From: Myxococcales bacterium
GTDB lineage: Bacteria; Myxococcota_A; UBA9042
Reading direction: 5' to 3'
Length of the DNA stretch: 35,151 nucleotides
NCBI GenBank assembly: GCA_037441385.1
Contig: JBBISH010000065.1
Span: 1-35,151, forward strand
Each line of letters begins with the position of its first letter. Within the stretch, counting starts at the first letter, position 1. The notes under the pieces are model-generated. The model was not told the DNA's origin. It worked only from the letters and a program-made list of their open reading frames with translations, and did no database searches. Shown piece after piece: positions 14,370 through 20,017 of this stretch. The translations under genes were made by a program, and so were the position numbers.

Positions 14370-15986
14370 TTAGAACTGCACGTGGGCCGAGTAACCCGTG
14401 GCCGCAGCGCCCGACTGCGTGCCGGCGTAGATGCCCGCACCGGCGCCACCCACCACCACCACACCGATGGCCGTCCAGAACCACCAGGTCTTGTAGACCG
14501 GCGTGCTGTCCTTGTCCTTGTCGGGGTCCAAGAGCTTGGCGTACGGGTCCTCGGGCACCGGGTCCTTGACCTTGACCCTGGGTTCGACCTTGGGCTCCAC
14601 TTTGGGCTCGACCCTGGGCTCGACCTTGGGCTCGACCTTGGGTTCGACCTTGGGATTGTCGTCGGGCGGCGGGGCCACGATGTCGGGCGCATCGGGCTCG
14701 GGCTCGGGCGCTCCGGCGTAGCAGGCCGGCGTCACGGCGACGTCGCTGGCGCAGCTCTGCAGGGCGGCACGCACCTTGCTCTCGGCATCCAGCGTCTGCA
14801 TCTGCAGGTTGCTCAGGTTGGCCGCATACTCGATCTTCTCGATCGAACAGGTCTTTTTGGTCTTGGCGTTGTACAGGAACAGGTACAGCTCCAGCGAACT
14901 GGGCCGCTTGCTGACCAGACCGAACAGCAGGTGGCTGGCACCGACTTGGCGGGCAAACATGCTTCCGGAATTCTTGAAGATCTTCTCGCCAAAATTGCCC
15001 TTGTTGGCCATGTCCTTGATGTCGTCGGCACTGACGCCCACGGCGATCTCGTCCTGGGGAGCCACCTCGATCTGCAGCACTGCGCGAACCGACAACGGCT
15101 TGCCCTTGAGCGCGATCGCCTGACCCCAGGGAGCCGCATTGCTTTTGCGTACTTGCAGGTAGTGGGTGCCGGTGAGCAAGTCCTTGGCCGTTGCGGGTGC
15201 CGTGCCGATCTTGACGCCATCGACGTAGACCTCCGAGTTCTCTTCGCGGCACTCCACGGTCACGTCGGCGCGGGGCTTGGCTTCCAGGGCTTGGCGGGTC
15301 TTCTCTACGAATGCCTTCAGATCCTTGTGCTTGCGGGCATCCACCACCAGGCTGGGTTGAATGACCAGCGCCTTGGTCAGCCAGTCGCCCGCCGTCTTCT
15401 GGTCCCCGGCGTCGTGGGCCAGGCCAGCCAAGGCCACGTAGGCGTCGCTCAGCTTAGAAAAGTCGACCAATTCAGCGAAGTTCTGTTCGTAACGGTCGGC
15501 CGCGGCGGTGATCAGCTTGACGGCGTCCGGAGCGTTTTCGCCACTTTCGGCCAGCATGTCGCGGGCCGCCGCCATCAACTTGTCGGCCTTTTCCAGGGCC
15601 TTGACGGCCGGGCTCGCCGGACGATCGCGCGGGGCGCCGTTGCTGCCGCCGCCGACGGCTTTGCCCGTTTCGGTGGCCTTGGCGGGGATCATCTTGACGT
15701 AGCCGGCGGCGTCCAGCATCTGCCGCAGGTATTCCTCGATGCGTTGCACAGATAGGGCGCCGACTTCGCCGCGCTTGACAAAGTGGACGATCCCAAGGGA
15801 GTTTTTCTCTTCGTCCGCCCAGGCCTTGCTGCCCAACTGCGACCCGGCAGGCAGCGCCGCGGTCAGCCAGCAAAGTGGCAACAGCAGGGCGACAGCGACG
15901 GGACGCAAGATGGTCCTGACGCGGGCAAGGGCAGCCGTGGACGGAGGCAGGGCGGCGCCGGCTCGGGCGGCTTTGATCGCGAACAT
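14370..15986 (-). CDS. PEGA-domain exported protein with TPR-like region, (PKVE)n spacer and C-terminal PVYKTWWFW hydrophobic segment
   Basis: PEGA motif SEVYVDGVKIGTAP..LLTGTHYLQVRK. N-terminal hydrophobic signal-like stretch. C-terminal WWFWTAIGVVVVGGAGAGIY typical of myxobacterial PEGA proteins. Start codon uncertain (15986 or slightly upstream). Confidence 0.8.
   Translation of the reverse strand: MFAIKAARAGAALPPSTAALARVRTILRPVAVALLLPLCWLTAALPAGSQLGSKAWADEEKNSLGIVHFVKRGEVGALSVQRIEEYLRQMLDAAGYVKMIPAKATETGKAVGGGSNGAPRDRPASPAVKALEKADKLMAAARDMLAESGENAPDAVKLITAAADRYEQNFAELVDFSKLSDAYVALAGLAHDAGDQKTAGDWLTKALVIQPSLVVDARKHKDLKAFVEKTRQALEAKPRADVTVECREENSEVYVDGVKIGTAPATAKDLLTGTHYLQVRKSNAAPWGQAIALKGKPLSVRAVLQIEVAPQDEIAVGVSADDIKDMANKGNFGEKIFKNSGSMFARQVGASHLLFGLVSKRPSSLELYLFLYNAKTKKTCSIEKIEYAANLSNLQMQTLDAESKVRAALQSCASDVAVTPACYAGAPEPEPDAPDIVAPPPDDNPKVEPKVEPKVEPRVEPKVEPKVEPRVKVKDPVPEDPYAKLLDPDKDKDSTPVYKTWWFWTAIGVVVVGGAGAGIYAGTQSGAAATGYSAHVQF
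14578..14654 (-). repeat. 12-bp tandem repeat, 6 copies, encoding (P-K/R-V-E)6
   Basis: GG(C/T)TCGACCTTG-type units on the + strand; protein NPKVEPKVEPKVEPRVEPKVEPKVEPRV. Confidence 0.92.
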
Positions 15987-15998
15987 CAGAAAAACCCC

Positions 15999-16019
15999 AT
16001 GCAAGATAACACCTTGCAT
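15999..16019. promoter_or_regulatory. Perfect 7-7-7 inverted repeat, candidate operator upstream of the PEGA gene
   Basis: ATGCAAG-ATAACAC-CTTGCAT, 13 nt upstream of ATG 15986 in an AT-richer intergenic stretch. Confidence 0.4.
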
Positions 16020-16152
16020 CATGTCTAGCGCGCTCAGCACGGCGCAAGGGCTGCGCGCGTTGCCGGCTCGATCCTGTAGTTTGCCTCAATTGCACAGCAG
16101 ATCAAAACCTCTGGCGGTTCTGCAAAGCAATTTCATGACGCGGCGGTCGCGT

Positions 16153-16944
16153 TCAAGGCTGTCCGCGCGCCACCACCACCAAGCCCACCGGCACTTCGAC
16201 GGCCGTGGTCACCACTGCGTTCGTGCCCGTGAGCGGCGCCGCCAGCATGGCCGACGAGCCGCCGTCCAGGTTCAGCGCGTCGCGCAGCCCCGGCCCCCCA
16301 ACCGGCTCGGACAGCGCCAAGGCACGGGCAAATTCGTCAACGCCCATCACACCTTCACTCACCGCAAGAACCACACGACCCAGCGAGTCGTGGCCGATGG
16401 CCACCCGGCGCGCCAAGTCGGTCCGGCGGAAGCGCGGTCGCTCGCCCGCCACGAGCAGCCGCGGCCCGCACTCCACGGCAAATTCCAGGTCGGGCGGCGC
16501 ATGAAACGTGCGCGCATGGTCCACCAGGGGCCGCCCGCCAGCGATCGCAAAGACACCGTGGTCGACACGGCGCAGGGGGGCCAGCTCGCGCCCGCCGCTG
16601 ACCAGCAGCCCCAGCGGCCGGTATTCCGGGTCAAAATAGCCGGCGTTGATGGCCGCCAGCGCGTGGCTGTAGCTGCGAAACTCCTCGGCCGAAGCCAGCT
16701 TTTTGCCCAGCGCCGTGGCCAGCACCACCCGCAGCTCGTGGCGGCGCAAGTCCAGGCGCAGCAAGTGGATGACCACGCTGGCGCGGTCCGTGCCCAGCGG
16801 CACATCGGTGCGGGCGTATTCCAGACCGGACGGCTCGCGCTGCCAGTGCAGCGGCCGCATCGGCGCGGGGTGGCGACAGGCTGCCAGCGCCGCCAGCCCA
16901 AGCGAACTGGCCAGCAGCGACCGGCGGCTGCGAGCGGTCATCAT
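16153..16944 (-). CDS. Phosphodiester glycosidase (NAGPA/DUF2233) family protein, probable Tat lipoprotein
   Basis: AINAGYFD, ARRVAIG and ALNLDGGSS family motifs; N-terminus SRRSLLASSLGLAALAA|C. Confidence 0.85.
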   Translation of the reverse strand: MMTARSRRSLLASSLGLAALAACRHPAPMRPLHWQREPSGLEYARTDVPLGTDRASVVIHLLRLDLRRHELRVVLATALGKKLASAEEFRSYSHALAAINAGYFDPEYRPLGLLVSGGRELAPLRRVDHGVFAIAGGRPLVDHARTFHAPPDLEFAVECGPRLLVAGERPRFRRTDLARRVAIGHDSLGRVVLAVSEGVMGVDEFARALALSEPVGGPGLRDALNLDGGSSAMLAAPLTGTNAVVTTAVEVPVGLVVVARGQP

Positions 16945-17075
16945 ACGGAATCCGTTCGAATCGAATCGCAAAGCCTGGAAGATCCGCGGGCCCGAACCGG
17001 GGTCCCCGCATGATTCTCGCCAGTTGCCGGACGGGTTACGGTAGCAATACAGGCGTGAATCGGGTGGGGTGCATA

Positions 17076-19571
17076 TCAGAGCAAGCTAGCGATGGCGTCG
17101 CGCAACTTCTGCAGCTGCTCTTCGGGCTTGAAGCCGGTGTCGTAGAAGCGCACCACGCCCTGGCGGTCGATGAGGAAGGTCGCGGGCATCGAGTACACGT
17201 TGAACTTGCCCATCAGCTCGTTCTCGGCGTCGGCGATGATGCCCCACGGCGCCTCGAAGCCCTTGGCAAATTCCAGCGAGCGGCCCTCTTCGCGGTCTAC
17301 GCCCACGCTGATGACCTGGAAGCCCTTGGCCTTGTGCTCCTTTTGCAGGTTGACCAGCTCGGGGAACTCCTTCTTGCACGGGCCGCACCACGAGGCAAAG
17401 AAGTTGATCAGCGTGACCTTGCCCTTGAACTGCGCCGAATCGACCTCGGCGCCGTTCGAGTCCTTGGCCTTGAACGGGGGCACAGGCTTGCCGACCAAGT
17501 CGGTGTCGCCACCCTTCAAATCGCTTGCGCTCACCTTGCCTTGCGCCACGTCCTTGTCGGCGCAGCAGCGGAAGCCGGTGGTCTGGTTGCGGTTGCCAAT
17601 GCCAAAGCTGGCCGACCGCTGGTTGCAGGCGGCGCGCTCGCCCGAGTTGTTGTGGCCGCCCATCAGGCCGGCGGTCTCTTTGGTCACGCCCGACCACTCG
17701 CCCATGTTGCCGGCCAGGTCAAACAGCCCCGACGGCGTGCGGCAATTGGCCTTGGTGCCGGTCTTTTGCGCCTTGCCCTTGTACTTGTCTTCTTGATCGA
17801 CGCAGTTGCCAGCTTCGTAGAACGTGCCGTAGGGGTACATGTTGCCCTCCACGTCGTCGTCGGCAAACTGCTGGTTGTTGTTGTTGTCGACCTGCAGAGC
17901 GCCGGCGCAGGCGCTGACCCACTCTTCTTCGCTGCACAGGCGCTTGCCGGCCTTGGCGCAGGCGTCGGTGGCCTCCGTCCACGAAGCGATGGCCGGCTCG
18001 ACGTCGGGCAGGCTCACGGCCTTGCCGTCCTTGGTCACCGCGGCTTCGTAGGGATCGATGTAGAACGCGCCCTTGCTGGTCTTGGCGGCGATCATGTGGC
18101 TGCCGTCGGGCTTGGGCGCCATCGCCACCGGCTGCTGCGCGGCGGCCGAGGTGGGATTCTCGAGCGCCTTCTGGATGTAGTACTCCAGGATCGCCGTCGA
18201 GGCCGAGCCGGTGACCATGCGACCGTTGATGTAGGTACGCGGCGCGCCATAGATGCCGGCGGCGTAGGCGGCGTCGATGTCTTTGTTGAACTTCGCCTGC
18301 ACGCTGGGGTCCTTGAGGCACGCGTCGTACTTGGCCATGTCCAGGCCCAGCTCCTCGGCGGCCTTGCGGTCGGTCTCGGCGTCGAGCTTGGGCTGGTTGG
18401 CGTACAGCTTGTCGTGCATGTCCCAGAACTTGCCCTGGCGGCCGGCACACAACGCCGCAGCATGGGCAAAGCAGGTGTTGGGGTGCTTGTCGTAGCCCGC
18501 CATGTACTTGTTGCAGCTGGGGTTCATGGGGAAGTGCTTCATGATGAAGCGGACTTTGTCCTTGTACTTGGGCTTCAGCGGCTCCATGGTCATGGCCAGG
18601 TAGCGGCAGTACGGGCACTCGAAGTCCGAGTACTTGACCACGGTGACCTTGGCGTCCTTGGCGCCGTAGGCATCGCGGATGTCTTCTTCGTCCAGGCAGG
18701 GTTCGTAAATGGTCCAGCCGTCTTCGGTCTTCTTGCCCATCGGCTTGCCGCACTCGCCGGTGGGGCGGGCGGCGGGCGCTTGGGCGGCCTGGGCAGCTTG
18801 CGGGGCGACGTTGTTGGCGCCGGCCTGGGCGGTCGTCGGCGAGCCGGCGTCGGGCTTGAGGGCTTCGTCGCCCTTCTTGAACGCCTCGTCGATCTTGGCC
18901 TTGTACTCGGCTTCCAGCGACGCGCGGCTGTGGTCGTAACCCAGCCAACCCGCGCCCGCGCCGATGACCAGCACCAGCAGGGCCGTCGTCACCGGCTGGT
19001 CGAACGAGACCAACAGCGCCAGCGCGCGCTGAATGGCGTTCTTGACCGTCTTGGGGCCGGCGGCGATGGCCAGCGCGGTGACGCAGAAGTTCACGATGTA
19101 CAGCGAGATGCAGTACAGGCAGTAGGCCTCGACCACCGCCGAGCTGTACAGGGCCAAGAAGAGGGAGTAGCCGCTGGTCAACAGGCCGATGCCGGCGACG
19201 GCGTCCAGCGCCTTTTCGCCCACTTTGGCCAGGTCGTGCGAAGTGCGACCGCGCAGGGTCAGCACGGTCAGGTACAGCTGCACCAGGTAGGTGGGGATGC
19301 CGTAGAAGCTGATCGGCATGCCGAACAGCTCGCTGGCGCCCGAGACGTTCACCTTGTCACAGTTGATCGCGCCGCCCAGATTGCAGCTGGAGGTGTAGGT
19401 GGGGTCCAGCGTGATGTGCAACTTGTGGCGCAGCAAGTAGATCGACACGCCAATACCCACCGCCGTCAGCAGCAGGATGCCGTACAGCAAGTTGGTGTTG
19501 GCCGCCGGGGCTGCGCCAGCCGGCAAAGGTTGGGGCGACGATTGGGGCGAATTGCCAAGGTCTTTGGCCAT
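17076..19571 (-). CDS. VKOR + DsbA-like thioredoxin + FGE-sulfatase (SUMF1-fold) + TlpA/ResA-like thioredoxin fusion (831 aa)
   Basis: ATG 19571 with AGGAG RBS. VKOR: SSCNLGGAINCDKV..S.LFGMP, YCLYC, ~5 TM segments. DsbA: YSDFECPYC, GKFWDMHDKLY, GIYGAPRTYING. FGE fold: FYIDPYEA, GKRLCSEEEW, YPYG, GLFDLAGNMGEW, GFRCC. TlpA: GKVTLINFFASWCGPCKKEFP, SMPATFLID. Confidence 0.9.
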   Translation of the reverse strand: MAKDLGNSPQSSPQPLPAGAAPAANTNLLYGILLLTAVGIGVSIYLLRHKLHITLDPTYTSSCNLGGAINCDKVNVSGASELFGMPISFYGIPTYLVQLYLTVLTLRGRTSHDLAKVGEKALDAVAGIGLLTSGYSLFLALYSSAVVEAYCLYCISLYIVNFCVTALAIAAGPKTVKNAIQRALALLVSFDQPVTTALLVLVIGAGAGWLGYDHSRASLEAEYKAKIDEAFKKGDEALKPDAGSPTTAQAGANNVAPQAAQAAQAPAARPTGECGKPMGKKTEDGWTIYEPCLDEEDIRDAYGAKDAKVTVVKYSDFECPYCRYLAMTMEPLKPKYKDKVRFIMKHFPMNPSCNKYMAGYDKHPNTCFAHAAALCAGRQGKFWDMHDKLYANQPKLDAETDRKAAEELGLDMAKYDACLKDPSVQAKFNKDIDAAYAAGIYGAPRTYINGRMVTGSASTAILEYYIQKALENPTSAAAQQPVAMAPKPDGSHMIAAKTSKGAFYIDPYEAAVTKDGKAVSLPDVEPAIASWTEATDACAKAGKRLCSEEEWVSACAGALQVDNNNNQQFADDDVEGNMYPYGTFYEAGNCVDQEDKYKGKAQKTGTKANCRTPSGLFDLAGNMGEWSGVTKETAGLMGGHNNSGERAACNQRSASFGIGNRNQTTGFRCCADKDVAQGKVSASDLKGGDTDLVGKPVPPFKAKDSNGAEVDSAQFKGKVTLINFFASWCGPCKKEFPELVNLQKEHKAKGFQVISVGVDREEGRSLEFAKGFEAPWGIIADAENELMGKFNVYSMPATFLIDRQGVVRFYDTGFKPEEQLQKLRDAIASLL

Positions 19572-19628
19572 TGGGAACTCCTGACAGCGCAAAAGGGCAG
19601 AGGCCGCGCCATGGGCACGCGGCGGGCA

Positions 19629-19656
19629 ATTCTAAGGAGAAACCGCGCCCGCGCAA
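19629..19656 (-). promoter_or_regulatory. Candidate sigma70-type promoter for the VKOR fusion gene
   Basis: Minus strand TTGCGC-N16-TAGAAT, about 58 nt upstream of ATG 19571. Confidence 0.45.
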
Positions 19657-19708
19657 GGGGCACCCCGTGCAAGGCCGCTCGATTGTCGATTATTCCCGGC
19701 GGGCGGAC

Positions 19709-19951
19709 CTACAAAAGCATCGAACCGGTGGCTTTTTTGCCCGCTTCGGTCAGCGCAAAGGTGCCGGCGTCGTAGCTCACCAGCTCGTCGGCCACCAGCG
19801 CCTCCATCAGCTCGCTGAACTCACGGTGGCCGCGACCAAACCGCAAAGTACTGAATTCGTGCAAATCCTTGATATGCATCGCCCCGCCTTGGCGGGCCAG
19901 TTGCTTGAGCACGCCCTTTTTGGCGGTGGCTTCGTCGCTCATCGCGCCCAT
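19709..19951 (-). CDS. Small (80 aa) hypothetical protein, winged-helix-like
   Basis: GGAG 6 nt before ATG 19951; sequence pattern ..GVLKQLARQGGAMHIKDLH..FSELMEALVADELVSYDAGTFALTEAGKK. Confidence 0.65.
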   Translation of the reverse strand: MGAMSDEATAKKGVLKQLARQGGAMHIKDLHEFSTLRFGRGHREFSELMEALVADELVSYDAGTFALTEAGKKATGSMLL

Positions 19952-20017
19952 GTGTCGCTCCAACCGGACCGCGCCGGTAACTCGGACCATTTTGGTCCAA
20001 GATTCACTATCGCGCAA

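Follow-up and report, generated by a model that had tools for sequence, protein, structure and literature searches.

One gene in a contig of an uncultured Myxococcales bacterium (JBBISH010000065.1 of assembly GCA_037441385.1, from which a stretch of 35,151 nt, referred to here as the window, was analyzed) was found to encode a protein in which a VKOR domain, a DsbA-like thioredoxin domain, a shortened FGE-type fold and a TlpA/ResA-like thioredoxin domain follow one another on a single chain. This four-domain protein is a real, conserved and uncharacterised variant of the VKOR-DsbA disulfide oxidases. We propose, with about as much belief as doubt, that it is an inner-membrane, periplasm-facing thiol-disulfide machine that combines a quinone-driven oxidase and a tethered reducing or isomerising thioredoxin on one chain.

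The four-domain fusion is genuine and conserved

The open reading frame (ORF) 17076..19592 has no internal stops by translation, and along the encoded chain the Pfam domains were detected in the order VKOR, DSBA/Thioredoxin_4, FGE-sulfatase and Redoxin/AhpC-TSA (Table 1). The protein most likely starts at the ATG at 19571 and is 831 residues long, since an AGGAG sequence lies 6 nt upstream of this codon; all residues cited here are numbered on the 838-residue frame with the TTG start. The original prediction of a single ORF with these four domains on the minus strand agreed with the Pfam scan and the ORF list, its three CXXC centers were located within the ranges it had given, and its placement of an FGE fold between two thioredoxin folds was borne out by Pfam and the structure model, with the difference that this domain is shortened. 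The full AlphaFold2 (AF2) model had a mean predicted local distance difference test score (pLDDT) of 87.2 and a predicted template modelling score (pTM) of 0.62, with disorder confined to the N-terminus and an Ala/Gln/Pro-rich linker. When the whole model was used as query, the Foldseek and VIA lists were taken up by the two thioredoxin folds.

The domain junctions, for which the original prediction had allowed an assembly chimera, were examined in independent sequence data. A Logan contig of 4598 nt from the probable source run was found to span positions 16999-19800 with 0 differences, and a Logan contig of 9943 nt from a freshwater run of another study spanned 17075-19798, where 219 letters differed and 26 gaps were present. 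By a word-indexed search of 5.8 billion proteins, 165 matches were obtained; of the 120 homologue clusters listed, 101 had VKOR, DsbA, FGE-sulfatase and Redoxin/AhpC-TSA domains together, while the others comprised 12 short clusters lacking only VKOR (probably fragments), 2 shorter forms and 5 unrelated multi-DsbA proteins. These homologues have generic database names such as 'redoxin family protein' and 'thioredoxin domain-containing protein', and the metagenome-assembled genomes (MAGs) that are the source of the 120 listed are labelled Myxococcales, Deltaproteobacteria, Myxococcota or Binatia. The window does come from a metagenome-type assembly of 221 contigs, which is the point in favor of an assembly chimera or gene-calling artefact; however, the ORF is uninterrupted, the AF2 models are confident, and the same junctions are carried by the homologue clusters, by long contigs of many sampled genomes and by the contig of the independent study. 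Thus, a chimera was rejected, and the probability left to an artefact of either kind is practically negligible.

The distribution of the protein was determined in a phylum sample of 401 genomes, with carriers counted by hand from the listed rows. By this approach, a match that covers the DsbA domain and continues through the TlpA domain was found in 64 of the 401 genomes, and in 3 more the gene was cut by contig ends. A full-length copy was present in all 28 other genomes of the window's family, and several of the sampled genomes had two paralogues. Thus, the architecture, which had been presented as unfamiliar, is common in the public data of uncultured Myxococcota; no description of it was found in the full-text literature searched (supplements and subscription journals lying outside the scope of this search). 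Contigs with a Myxococcota-type gene were also observed under the labels Nitrosopumilus sp. or Rickettsiales (L006, L012, L016 and L017); as L006 nests inside the window's family on the tree, the MAG labels of such contigs are probably binning or naming errors.

Conservation was examined in an alignment of 62 family members. Cysteines C78, C158, C161, C326 and C329 were retained in all 62, and C70, C736 and C739 in 59 each. The cis-Pro loops of both thioredoxin folds were likewise retained. Judged from this alignment, the redox cysteines are conserved far beyond chance.

VKOR and DsbA-like domains

The VKOR domain was detected with identical coordinates in a scan of the whole genome. Its loop pair and CXXC, four cysteines in all, are present in 59-62 of the 62 members, and loop serines S84 and S87 are conserved in at least 90% of them. 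Conservation of four cysteines and of a loop Ser/Thr is a feature of VKOR according to the available part of PMC4555120. A solved VKOR-like protein (6wv9) matched weakly by sequence (E 0.0047) with both Cys pairs aligned. The VKOR assignment rests on Pfam, the four cysteines and this weak match, as the structure lists did not reach the VKOR part of the model. AF2 placed the helices of the VKOR core at residues 33-62, 94-117, 119-154 and 159-178, and a fifth transmembrane helix follows. The same available part of PMC4555120 describes proteobacterial VKORs that have a fifth helix and, at the C-terminus, a thioredoxin domain, an arrangement that the window protein matches. Everything after residue 222 is predicted to be periplasmic and should be so on account of the five membrane passes, from which, and by analogy with such VKOR-thioredoxin fusions, we infer the sidedness. 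A low-complexity linker then leads to the DsbA-like domain.

The DSBA profile was covered in full (positions 1-191 of 191, 81.8 bits). The dipeptide of the DsbA active site is variable among the 62 members (C[PGA]YC), the cis-Pro loop reads G-[TA]-P451 (G-A-P451 in the window protein), and further invariant cysteines are present at positions 360, 374, 382 and 425. AF2 placed a helical insert of this domain at 373-444. The structural matches were led by 3gyk (Z 21.9), BdbD (Z 21.1) and ScsC (Z 20.6), with BcfH, a DsbA-fold protein of isomerase/reductase type like ScsC, at Z ~20. From the fusion itself, and from a Clostridium sp. VKOR-DsbA fusion that complements E. coli dsbA dsbB (available part of PMC12453122), we infer that the DsbA domain is probably the oxidase partner of VKOR.

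The C-terminal domain is TlpA/ResA-like

The C-terminal domain scored 96 bits with the Redoxin model PF08534 (cut-off 26.6) and has the cis-Pro pair M802-P803. Its active-site motif was found to be WCGPC in 46 and WCGSC in 11 of the 62 members. The closest structure was 3gl3, a putative DsbE of Chlorobium tepidum (Z 23.5, root-mean-square deviation 1.3 over 140 residues), and ResA and CcmG were matched at Z 20.6 and 18.8, respectively. The 20-residue linker between the FGE and TlpA domains was modelled with confidence by AF2 (pLDDT 86-94). A peroxiredoxin was considered and rejected: the peroxidatic Cys of peroxiredoxins sits in a T-x-x-C context, whereas the site here is A-S-W-C-G-P-C, a thioredoxin-type CXXC, and the closest structures are thiol-disulfide oxidoreductases. 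The AhpC-TSA Pfam match (92.9 bits) was attributed to the shared fold. Thioredoxins of ResA/DsbE/CcmG type are normally reduced through DsbD/CcdA. The assignment of the C-terminal domain to this class, as first proposed, agrees with the structural matches; DsbD and CcdA homologues are present in the genome.

A three-domain form is accompanied by a separate TlpA-like gene

A shorter form matching residues ~260-680 was detected in 17 genomes of the 401-genome sample. In the eight loci fetched, this three-domain form is ~620-660 residues long and terminates with the final FGE-fold strand, GFRCC. In five of the eight (L104, L106, L107, L108 and L111), a TlpA-like gene was found directly upstream on the same strand, at a distance of 3-70 nt or overlapping. 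The product of this split gene is a 150-residue Redoxin-family protein with a signal peptide and the motif SFWASWCGPCR. In three of the five genomes it was the best genome-wide match to the TlpA domain of the window protein; in the fourth, the genome's own four-domain copy came out narrowly ahead of it, and in the fifth it ranked second. Thus, based on the adjacency of the split gene in five of eight loci, the TlpA module has a link to VKOR-DsbA-FGE that does not depend on fusion. The split TlpA gene is preceded by a cytochrome c gene in L107 and by a di-haem peroxidase gene in L108.

In a tree of the DsbA-FGE part, the eight three-domain forms make up one side of a single branch (SH-aLRT 88, a Shimodaira-Hasegawa-like approximate likelihood ratio test value). 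By this tree, a single fission or fusion event took place and was retained across two GTDB families. The DsbA-FGE part of L108 was also modelled in complex with its separate TlpA protein. The median score was 0.55 (runs 0.39, 0.69 and 0.55), while the controls gave 0.00 as best of 3; the runs agreed in at least 86% of contacts, with a partner pLDDT of at least 86. Of 157 solved complexes, 116 attained the mark applied to such scores, compared to 2 of 215 mismatched pairs; those that attained it with a score of 0.60 or below were just 18 of the 157 solved complexes and both of the passing mismatches.

The FGE-type domain lacks the FGE active site

The FGE-sulfatase profile was matched at residues 530-634 (E 1.3e-9) over positions 89-189 of 255 only, and the domain comprises ~190 residues compared to ~270-300 in solved FGEs; it is not a full-length FGE-sulfatase domain. 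Folded alone, it was modelled with a pLDDT of 92.5 and a pTM of 0.90. Human FGE was found by Foldseek at E 4.8e-8, and by VIA search TvpA (Z 17.0), CalU17 (16.0), pFGE (15.6), Mtd (15.4), EgtB (15.1) and PorK (15.1) were in a near tie. The best solved relative by sequence was the inactive paralogue pFGE (E 1.1e-11).

The alignment of this fold comprised 51 domain copies from the fetched loci. When aligned to human FGE, the position of catalytic Cys336 was found to be Ser or Asn, and Cys341 lies within a deletion. Eight cysteines (545, 553, 562, 597, 617, 656, 676 and 677) are kept in 61-62 of the 62 family members, six of them in all. Cysteines 545, 562, 656 and 676 align with human FGE cysteines 218, 235, 346 and 365, which we take to be the two structural disulfides of that enzyme, and cysteines 553, 597, 617 and 677 are specific to the family of the four-domain protein. 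Taken together, these alignments indicate a disulfide-rich, shortened FGE/C-type-lectin fold that lacks the FGE active site, and because the catalytic Cys pair is absent the domain is not considered an FGE enzyme. The domain would be a binding or spacer module, and substrate binding is only a guess. Of the possible substrate-binding FGE fold first proposed, the fold itself is real, and a role as an FGE enzyme is excluded by the missing Cys pair.

A catalytic domain was nevertheless weighed, in which the fold would modify cysteines, for example by forming formylglycine or C-S bonds in the manner of FGE or EgtB, by use of the vicinal Cys676-Cys677 or another site, and the thioredoxin domains would service it. 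The near-invariance of the eight cysteines, including the adjacent CC pair, would fit this explanation, as would the fact that FGE and EgtB/OvoA-type enzymes have the same fold and act on thiols. By contrast, both catalytic cysteines of FGE are without a counterpart, the closest sequence relative is inactive pFGE, the match to the FGE profile lacks the N-terminal part and begins only at position 89, the top structural neighbors TvpA, Mtd and PorK are binding or structural proteins, and four of the eight cysteines align with human FGE cysteines outside the catalytic pair. An FGE of the catalytic type was rejected on the missing cysteines, and we consider any catalytic role very improbable.

The partners of this fold were surveyed by a profile search of 1.84 billion representatives at 50% identity, by which 116 were found at E <=1e-30 and 74 were Pfam-scanned. 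Among these 74, 18 were four-domain proteins, 10 were VKOR-DsbA-FGE proteins and ~11-13 were N-terminally cut pieces of either; the remainder were tandem repeats of the FGE fold or other fusions. The top-scoring representatives were nearly all VKOR-DsbA-FGE proteins with or without Redoxin; therefore, this FGE-fold subtype is tied to the DsbA domain. The Cys-rich short subtype was also observed in tandem arrays of 3-10 copies, in proteins that reach 6477 residues (P0137, P0160, P0161, P0162, P0178 and P0179), and in P0170 it is joined to a Ser/Thr kinase that has a PEGA domain. The tandem-copy and kinase-fused proteins have no thioredoxin domain.

Proposed function and alternative explanations

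In the mechanism we propose, the VKOR domain would reduce membrane quinone and make disulfides de novo, and its loop cysteines would pass these disulfides to the fused DsbA domain, which would oxidise exported proteins, in the same way as in known VKOR-DsbA fusions. The C-terminal thioredoxin domain would be held reduced by the DsbD/CcdA pathway of the cell and would undo or reshuffle unwanted disulfides, including wrong pairings and those of CXXCH-type motifs, such that the enzyme would work like a PDI-type oxidase plus proof-reader. The FGE fold may serve as a non-catalytic platform that docks the thioredoxin module, binds something, or both, and it may keep the oxidising and reducing centers apart and prevent a short circuit. 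A more ambitious form of this proposal, which we regard as possible but doubtful, is a self-contained one-chain bacterial counterpart of Ero1/VKOR-PDI with quinone-made disulfides, delivery by DsbA, ResA-type proof-reading and a rigid lectin-like domain, knotted by disulfides, that binds clients or docks the reducing head and insulates the centers. If this were true, the spacer would solve the short-circuit problem, which E. coli avoids by DsbC dimerisation.

Several observations weigh against the proposed combination of oxidase and reducing thioredoxin. The DsbA fold alone is no proof of oxidase function, because ScsC and BcfH score nearly as well as the other DsbA-type matches. On thermodynamic grounds, an oxidised DsbA center would oxidise a thioredoxin-type center on contact, and thus a reduced TlpA domain would need kinetic isolation. 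The C-terminal domain falls below the curated NCBIfam cut-offs of its nearest models there, ResA (90.8 of 170), DsbE (74.9 of 123.15) and TlpA (65.2 of 230), which places it in the wider Redoxin/TlpA-like superfamily and not in those families, and the loss of its two cysteines in 3 of 62 members indicates that this redox center is dispensable in some lineages. With respect to the split form, no TlpA gene was found within two ORFs in three of the eight three-domain loci; as the eight forms share a single branch, the five adjacencies count as one evolutionary event and not five; and the complex models only weakly suggest that the split TlpA protein docks on the DsbA-FGE part. Finally, the flanking genes are heterogeneous outside the window's family, and no DsbD/CcdA gene adjoins the four-domain gene, with the exception of a DsbD_N ORF after the gene in L006.

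The absence of a linked DsbD/CcdA gene would be expected if the protein were instead a two-headed oxidase or relay, in which VKOR would oxidise the two thioredoxin folds, either directly or via DsbA, and these would oxidise different sets of clients with no DsbD input. Electron flow from a thioredoxin-type to a DsbA-type center is downhill, the high-confidence FGE-TlpA linker would fit a fixed relay geometry equally, and the solved Synechococcus VKOR fusion reportedly has a plain thioredoxin-like domain and not a DsbA with a helical insert. However, CGPC is the classical reducing thioredoxin motif, and the closest structures of the C-terminal domain are reductive proteins of ResA/CcmG/DsbE type. 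The TlpA product of the split form is a free secreted protein, for which relay tethering is not needed, and ~370 residues and two folded domains separate the TlpA domain from VKOR in the fused form. We consider this explanation quite unlikely.

Another explanation is that of a dedicated maturation factor, in which the TlpA/ResA-like domain would, like CcmG, ResA and TlpA, reduce apocytochrome c (CXXCH) or copper-center proteins and would be tethered to the very oxidase that would lock those cysteines, with no role as a general isomerase. Genes for cytochrome c maturation by System I and by System II are both present in the genome of the window, and no thioredoxin gene was found beside its CcmABC, CcmF or ResB-CcsA loci in the stretches fetched and examined. 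The best match of this genome to the DsbE/CcmG model TIGR00385 was the fused domain itself (75.7 bits, the next being 45.7). Next to the four-domain gene, a divergent ccm operon was detected in L013 and L101, and in L115 one lies ~3 kb from it (tblastn identified ccmA, ccmC and ccmF, and Pfam identified ccmB, the latter in L013 alone); the split TlpA gene, in turn, is preceded by the cytochrome c and di-haem peroxidase genes noted above. In M. tuberculosis, VKOR and CcsX are genetically antagonistic (available part of PMC3781833), which points in the same direction. By contrast, ccmF is followed by a separate CcmG-like gene within the ccm operons of L013 and L101, and the idea that the fused domain is the sole CcmG of the cell was not upheld. 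The 17 Redoxin matches in the window's genome could supply a ResA, the domain is below the curated DsbE, ResA and TlpA cut-offs, and the ccm adjacency is limited to 3 loci of one clade among ~39 loci outside the window's family. Moreover, the FGE fold, which is linked to VKOR-DsbA with or without a fused TlpA domain, is left unexplained. A dedicated maturation factor is thus an unlikely reading of the protein, and an oxidase with a tethered reducing or isomerising thioredoxin is the one we carry forward.

Genome and locus context

The genome of the window (6.6 Mb) is 90.9% complete, and at this level of completeness 0 DsbB matches were detected. Two VKOR genes are present. The second encodes a protein of 467 residues (L002, G000:C86, 1447-2850, plus strand) and adjoins a kinase-like ORF; its C-terminal region with CPHC reads like a DsbA domain, and Pfam reported the VKOR domain only. 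A DsbD-like protein (DsbD_TM and thioredoxin domain) and a CcdA-like ORF are also present, and Thioredoxin_4 was matched by 19 domains. Three or four tandem DsbA-like (Thioredoxin_4) domains were observed in single ORFs of ~690-780 residues (C15:22332-24095, C17:62216-64663, C92:9266-11122 and C106:16056-17783). Together with the 19 Thioredoxin_4 matches, these ORFs point to an unusually expanded periplasmic DsbA repertoire.

Synteny was compared by all-against-all BLAST of 594 non-overlapping ORFs. Behind the four-domain gene, the order NAGPA, PEGA, Kelch and DUF11 (Table 1) is shared by 14 loci of the window's family, including loci in which the target itself is only ~50% identical. This block may be an operon or may reflect shared descent only, the latter as the synteny is confined to the window's family. 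The upstream genes (a 102-residue ORF, MnmE and EtfAB) are kept in the closest relative only. Outside the window's family, no conserved neighbors were detected among 132 flanking ORFs scanned, with nine long ORFs left out. Cys-rich exported proteins had been proposed as clients of the enzyme; the conserved downstream genes do not fit this role and were rejected as such clients, as the Cys content of their products (NAGPA, PEGA, Kelch and giant DUF11) is 0.4-1.2%. Five loci of one clade have an additional TlpA-like thioredoxin gene just downstream of the four-domain gene.

A dispersed repeat of ~90 nt was observed directly after the stop codon of the gene (window 16987-17078). At least 41 copies with 83-93% identity are located on many contigs of the window's genome (40 scored of 315 first-look candidates), and the contig depth of this repeat is very high in several metagenomes. 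It had no Rfam match, and its folding was not unusual (z 0.14). Among the listed matches for the window stretch there were no RNA runs.

Table 1. Features of the four-domain gene and its surroundings. Positions are those of the window unless a locus is named; residues follow the 838-residue frame.
Feature	Position	Strand	Basis or remarks
Whole gene	17076..19571	minus	831 residues from ATG at 19571; ORF list, translation, ribosome-binding site
Longer frame	17076..19592	minus	838 residues from TTG at 19592
Stop codon	17076-17078	minus	ORF translation
Ribosome-binding site AGGAG	19578..19582	minus	6 nt before ATG; read from sequence
VKOR domain, residues 39-175	19068..19478	minus	Pfam PF07884, E 1.5e-22, 80.6 bits, cut-off 27.5
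VKOR loop cysteines	C70 19383-19385, C78 19359-19361	minus	Translation
VKOR active site C158-L-Y-C161	19110-19121	minus	Translation
Fifth transmembrane helix, ~residues 201-222	18927..18992	minus	Hydrophobic windows 190-219; AF2 helix 201-239
Ala/Gln/Pro low-complexity linker, residues 238-275	18768..18881	minus	pLDDT <50 at 238-240 and 242-275
DsbA-like thioredoxin domain, residues 308-474	18171..18671	minus	Pfam DSBA/Thioredoxin_4 (PF01323/PF13462), E 7e-23
DsbA active site C326-P-Y-C329	18606-18617	minus	Translation
Shortened FGE-type (C-type-lectin-like) fold, residues 490-680	17553..18125	minus	Pfam, model, structural matches
TlpA/ResA/DsbE-like thioredoxin domain, residues 700-838	17079..17495	minus	Pfam Redoxin/AhpC-TSA 700-829, E 2e-27
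TlpA active site W-C736-G-P-C739	17376-17390	minus	Translation
NAGPA-type phosphodiester glycosidase	16153-16971	minus	Downstream gene
PEGA-domain protein	14370-16040	minus	Downstream gene
Kelch lipoprotein	12517-~14091	minus	Downstream gene
DUF11-repeat protein, >4118 residues	3-12356	minus	Downstream; runs off the window
102-residue ORF	19709-20017	minus	Upstream; no Pfam match; 84% identity in L084 (closest relative), among fetched loci only there
Extra thioredoxin genes	L013 10706-11017, L101 6249-6548, L016 10637-10984, L115 9607-9975, L116 4369-4722

Significance and comparison with known systems

The oxidative (DsbA/DsbB) and reductive or isomerising (DsbC/DsbD) pathways of bacteria are, by the textbook, separate and kinetically insulated. 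A widespread natural protein whose single chain has an oxidising module together with a thioredoxin that is probably reducing would provide a direct test of how a short circuit is avoided, and the sister split form would do likewise. The architecture also raises the question of a PDI-like single-enzyme solution in bacteria, would give a non-catalytic FGE/lectin fold a role in redox biology, and could serve as a compact tool for the production of disulfide-rich proteins in E. coli. Much of the Myxococcota is marked by the four-domain family; the secreted proteomes of this phylum are large, and its disulfide systems are little described in the literature searched. In this literature, no paper was found on VKOR with an FGE fold or a TlpA-type domain, and neither the constant DsbA-FGE pairing nor the split form with an adjacent TlpA gene was found.

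Already known are the VKOR-thioredoxin and VKOR-DsbA fusions, the ResA/CcmG/TlpA class and the non-catalytic FGE folds. With the VKOR-thioredoxin/DsbA fusions, which include a Synechococcus VKOR fusion mentioned in the available part of PMC12453122, the window protein shares the loop Cys pair and CXXC core, the extra transmembrane helix and a periplasmic thioredoxin fold with CXXC. Unlike the fusions described, it adds an FGE/C-type-lectin fold and a thioredoxin of ResA/DsbE type.

In M. tuberculosis, a mutation of the VKOR active site suppresses the loss of the ResA-like protein CcsX, according to the available part of PMC3781833; as this mutation removes the need for CcsX, oxidation by VKOR and reduction of ResA type act on the same clients. 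Insofar as that source covers it, the M. tuberculosis set of VKOR, DsbA and CcsX resembles the window protein in having three activities in one compartment, with oxidation set against reduction on the same cysteines. It differs in that the M. tuberculosis proteins are from separate genes, with CcsX fed by CcdA/DipZ, whereas the window protein and its split relatives have one chain or adjacent genes and an FGE fold in addition.

HP0377, the CcmG of H. pylori, acts as both reductase and isomerase in cooperation with an oxidase, as stated in the available parts of PMC5909903 and PMC4491210. The C-terminal domain of the window protein has the fold, the WCxxC motif and the cis-Pro loop of ResA, CcmG (DsbE) and TlpA, including HP0377. 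Unlike these proteins, it has CGPC, falls below the family cut-offs, is fused C-terminally to an oxidase and has no N-terminal anchor helix of its own.

With the non-catalytic FGE folds, namely pFGE/SUMF2 (1y4j), PvdO, PorK and the diversity-generating retroelement (DGR) proteins TvpA and Mtd, the FGE-type domain shares its fold (Z 14-17) and the absence of the catalytic Cys pair. It is unlike them in its shortened N-terminus, its four extra family-specific cysteines and its constant linkage to DsbA.

In eukaryotic PDI with its oxidase (Ero1, or VKOR with membrane thioredoxins), a non-catalytic domain lies between two catalytic CXXC thioredoxin folds, which are coupled to an enzyme of de novo disulfide formation. 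The likeness of the window protein to PDI (a-b-b'-a') is a functional analogy only, as its middle domain is an FGE/lectin fold and not the thioredoxin fold of b and b'. Unlike PDI, its two catalytic domains are of different subfamilies, and the oxidase is on the same chain.

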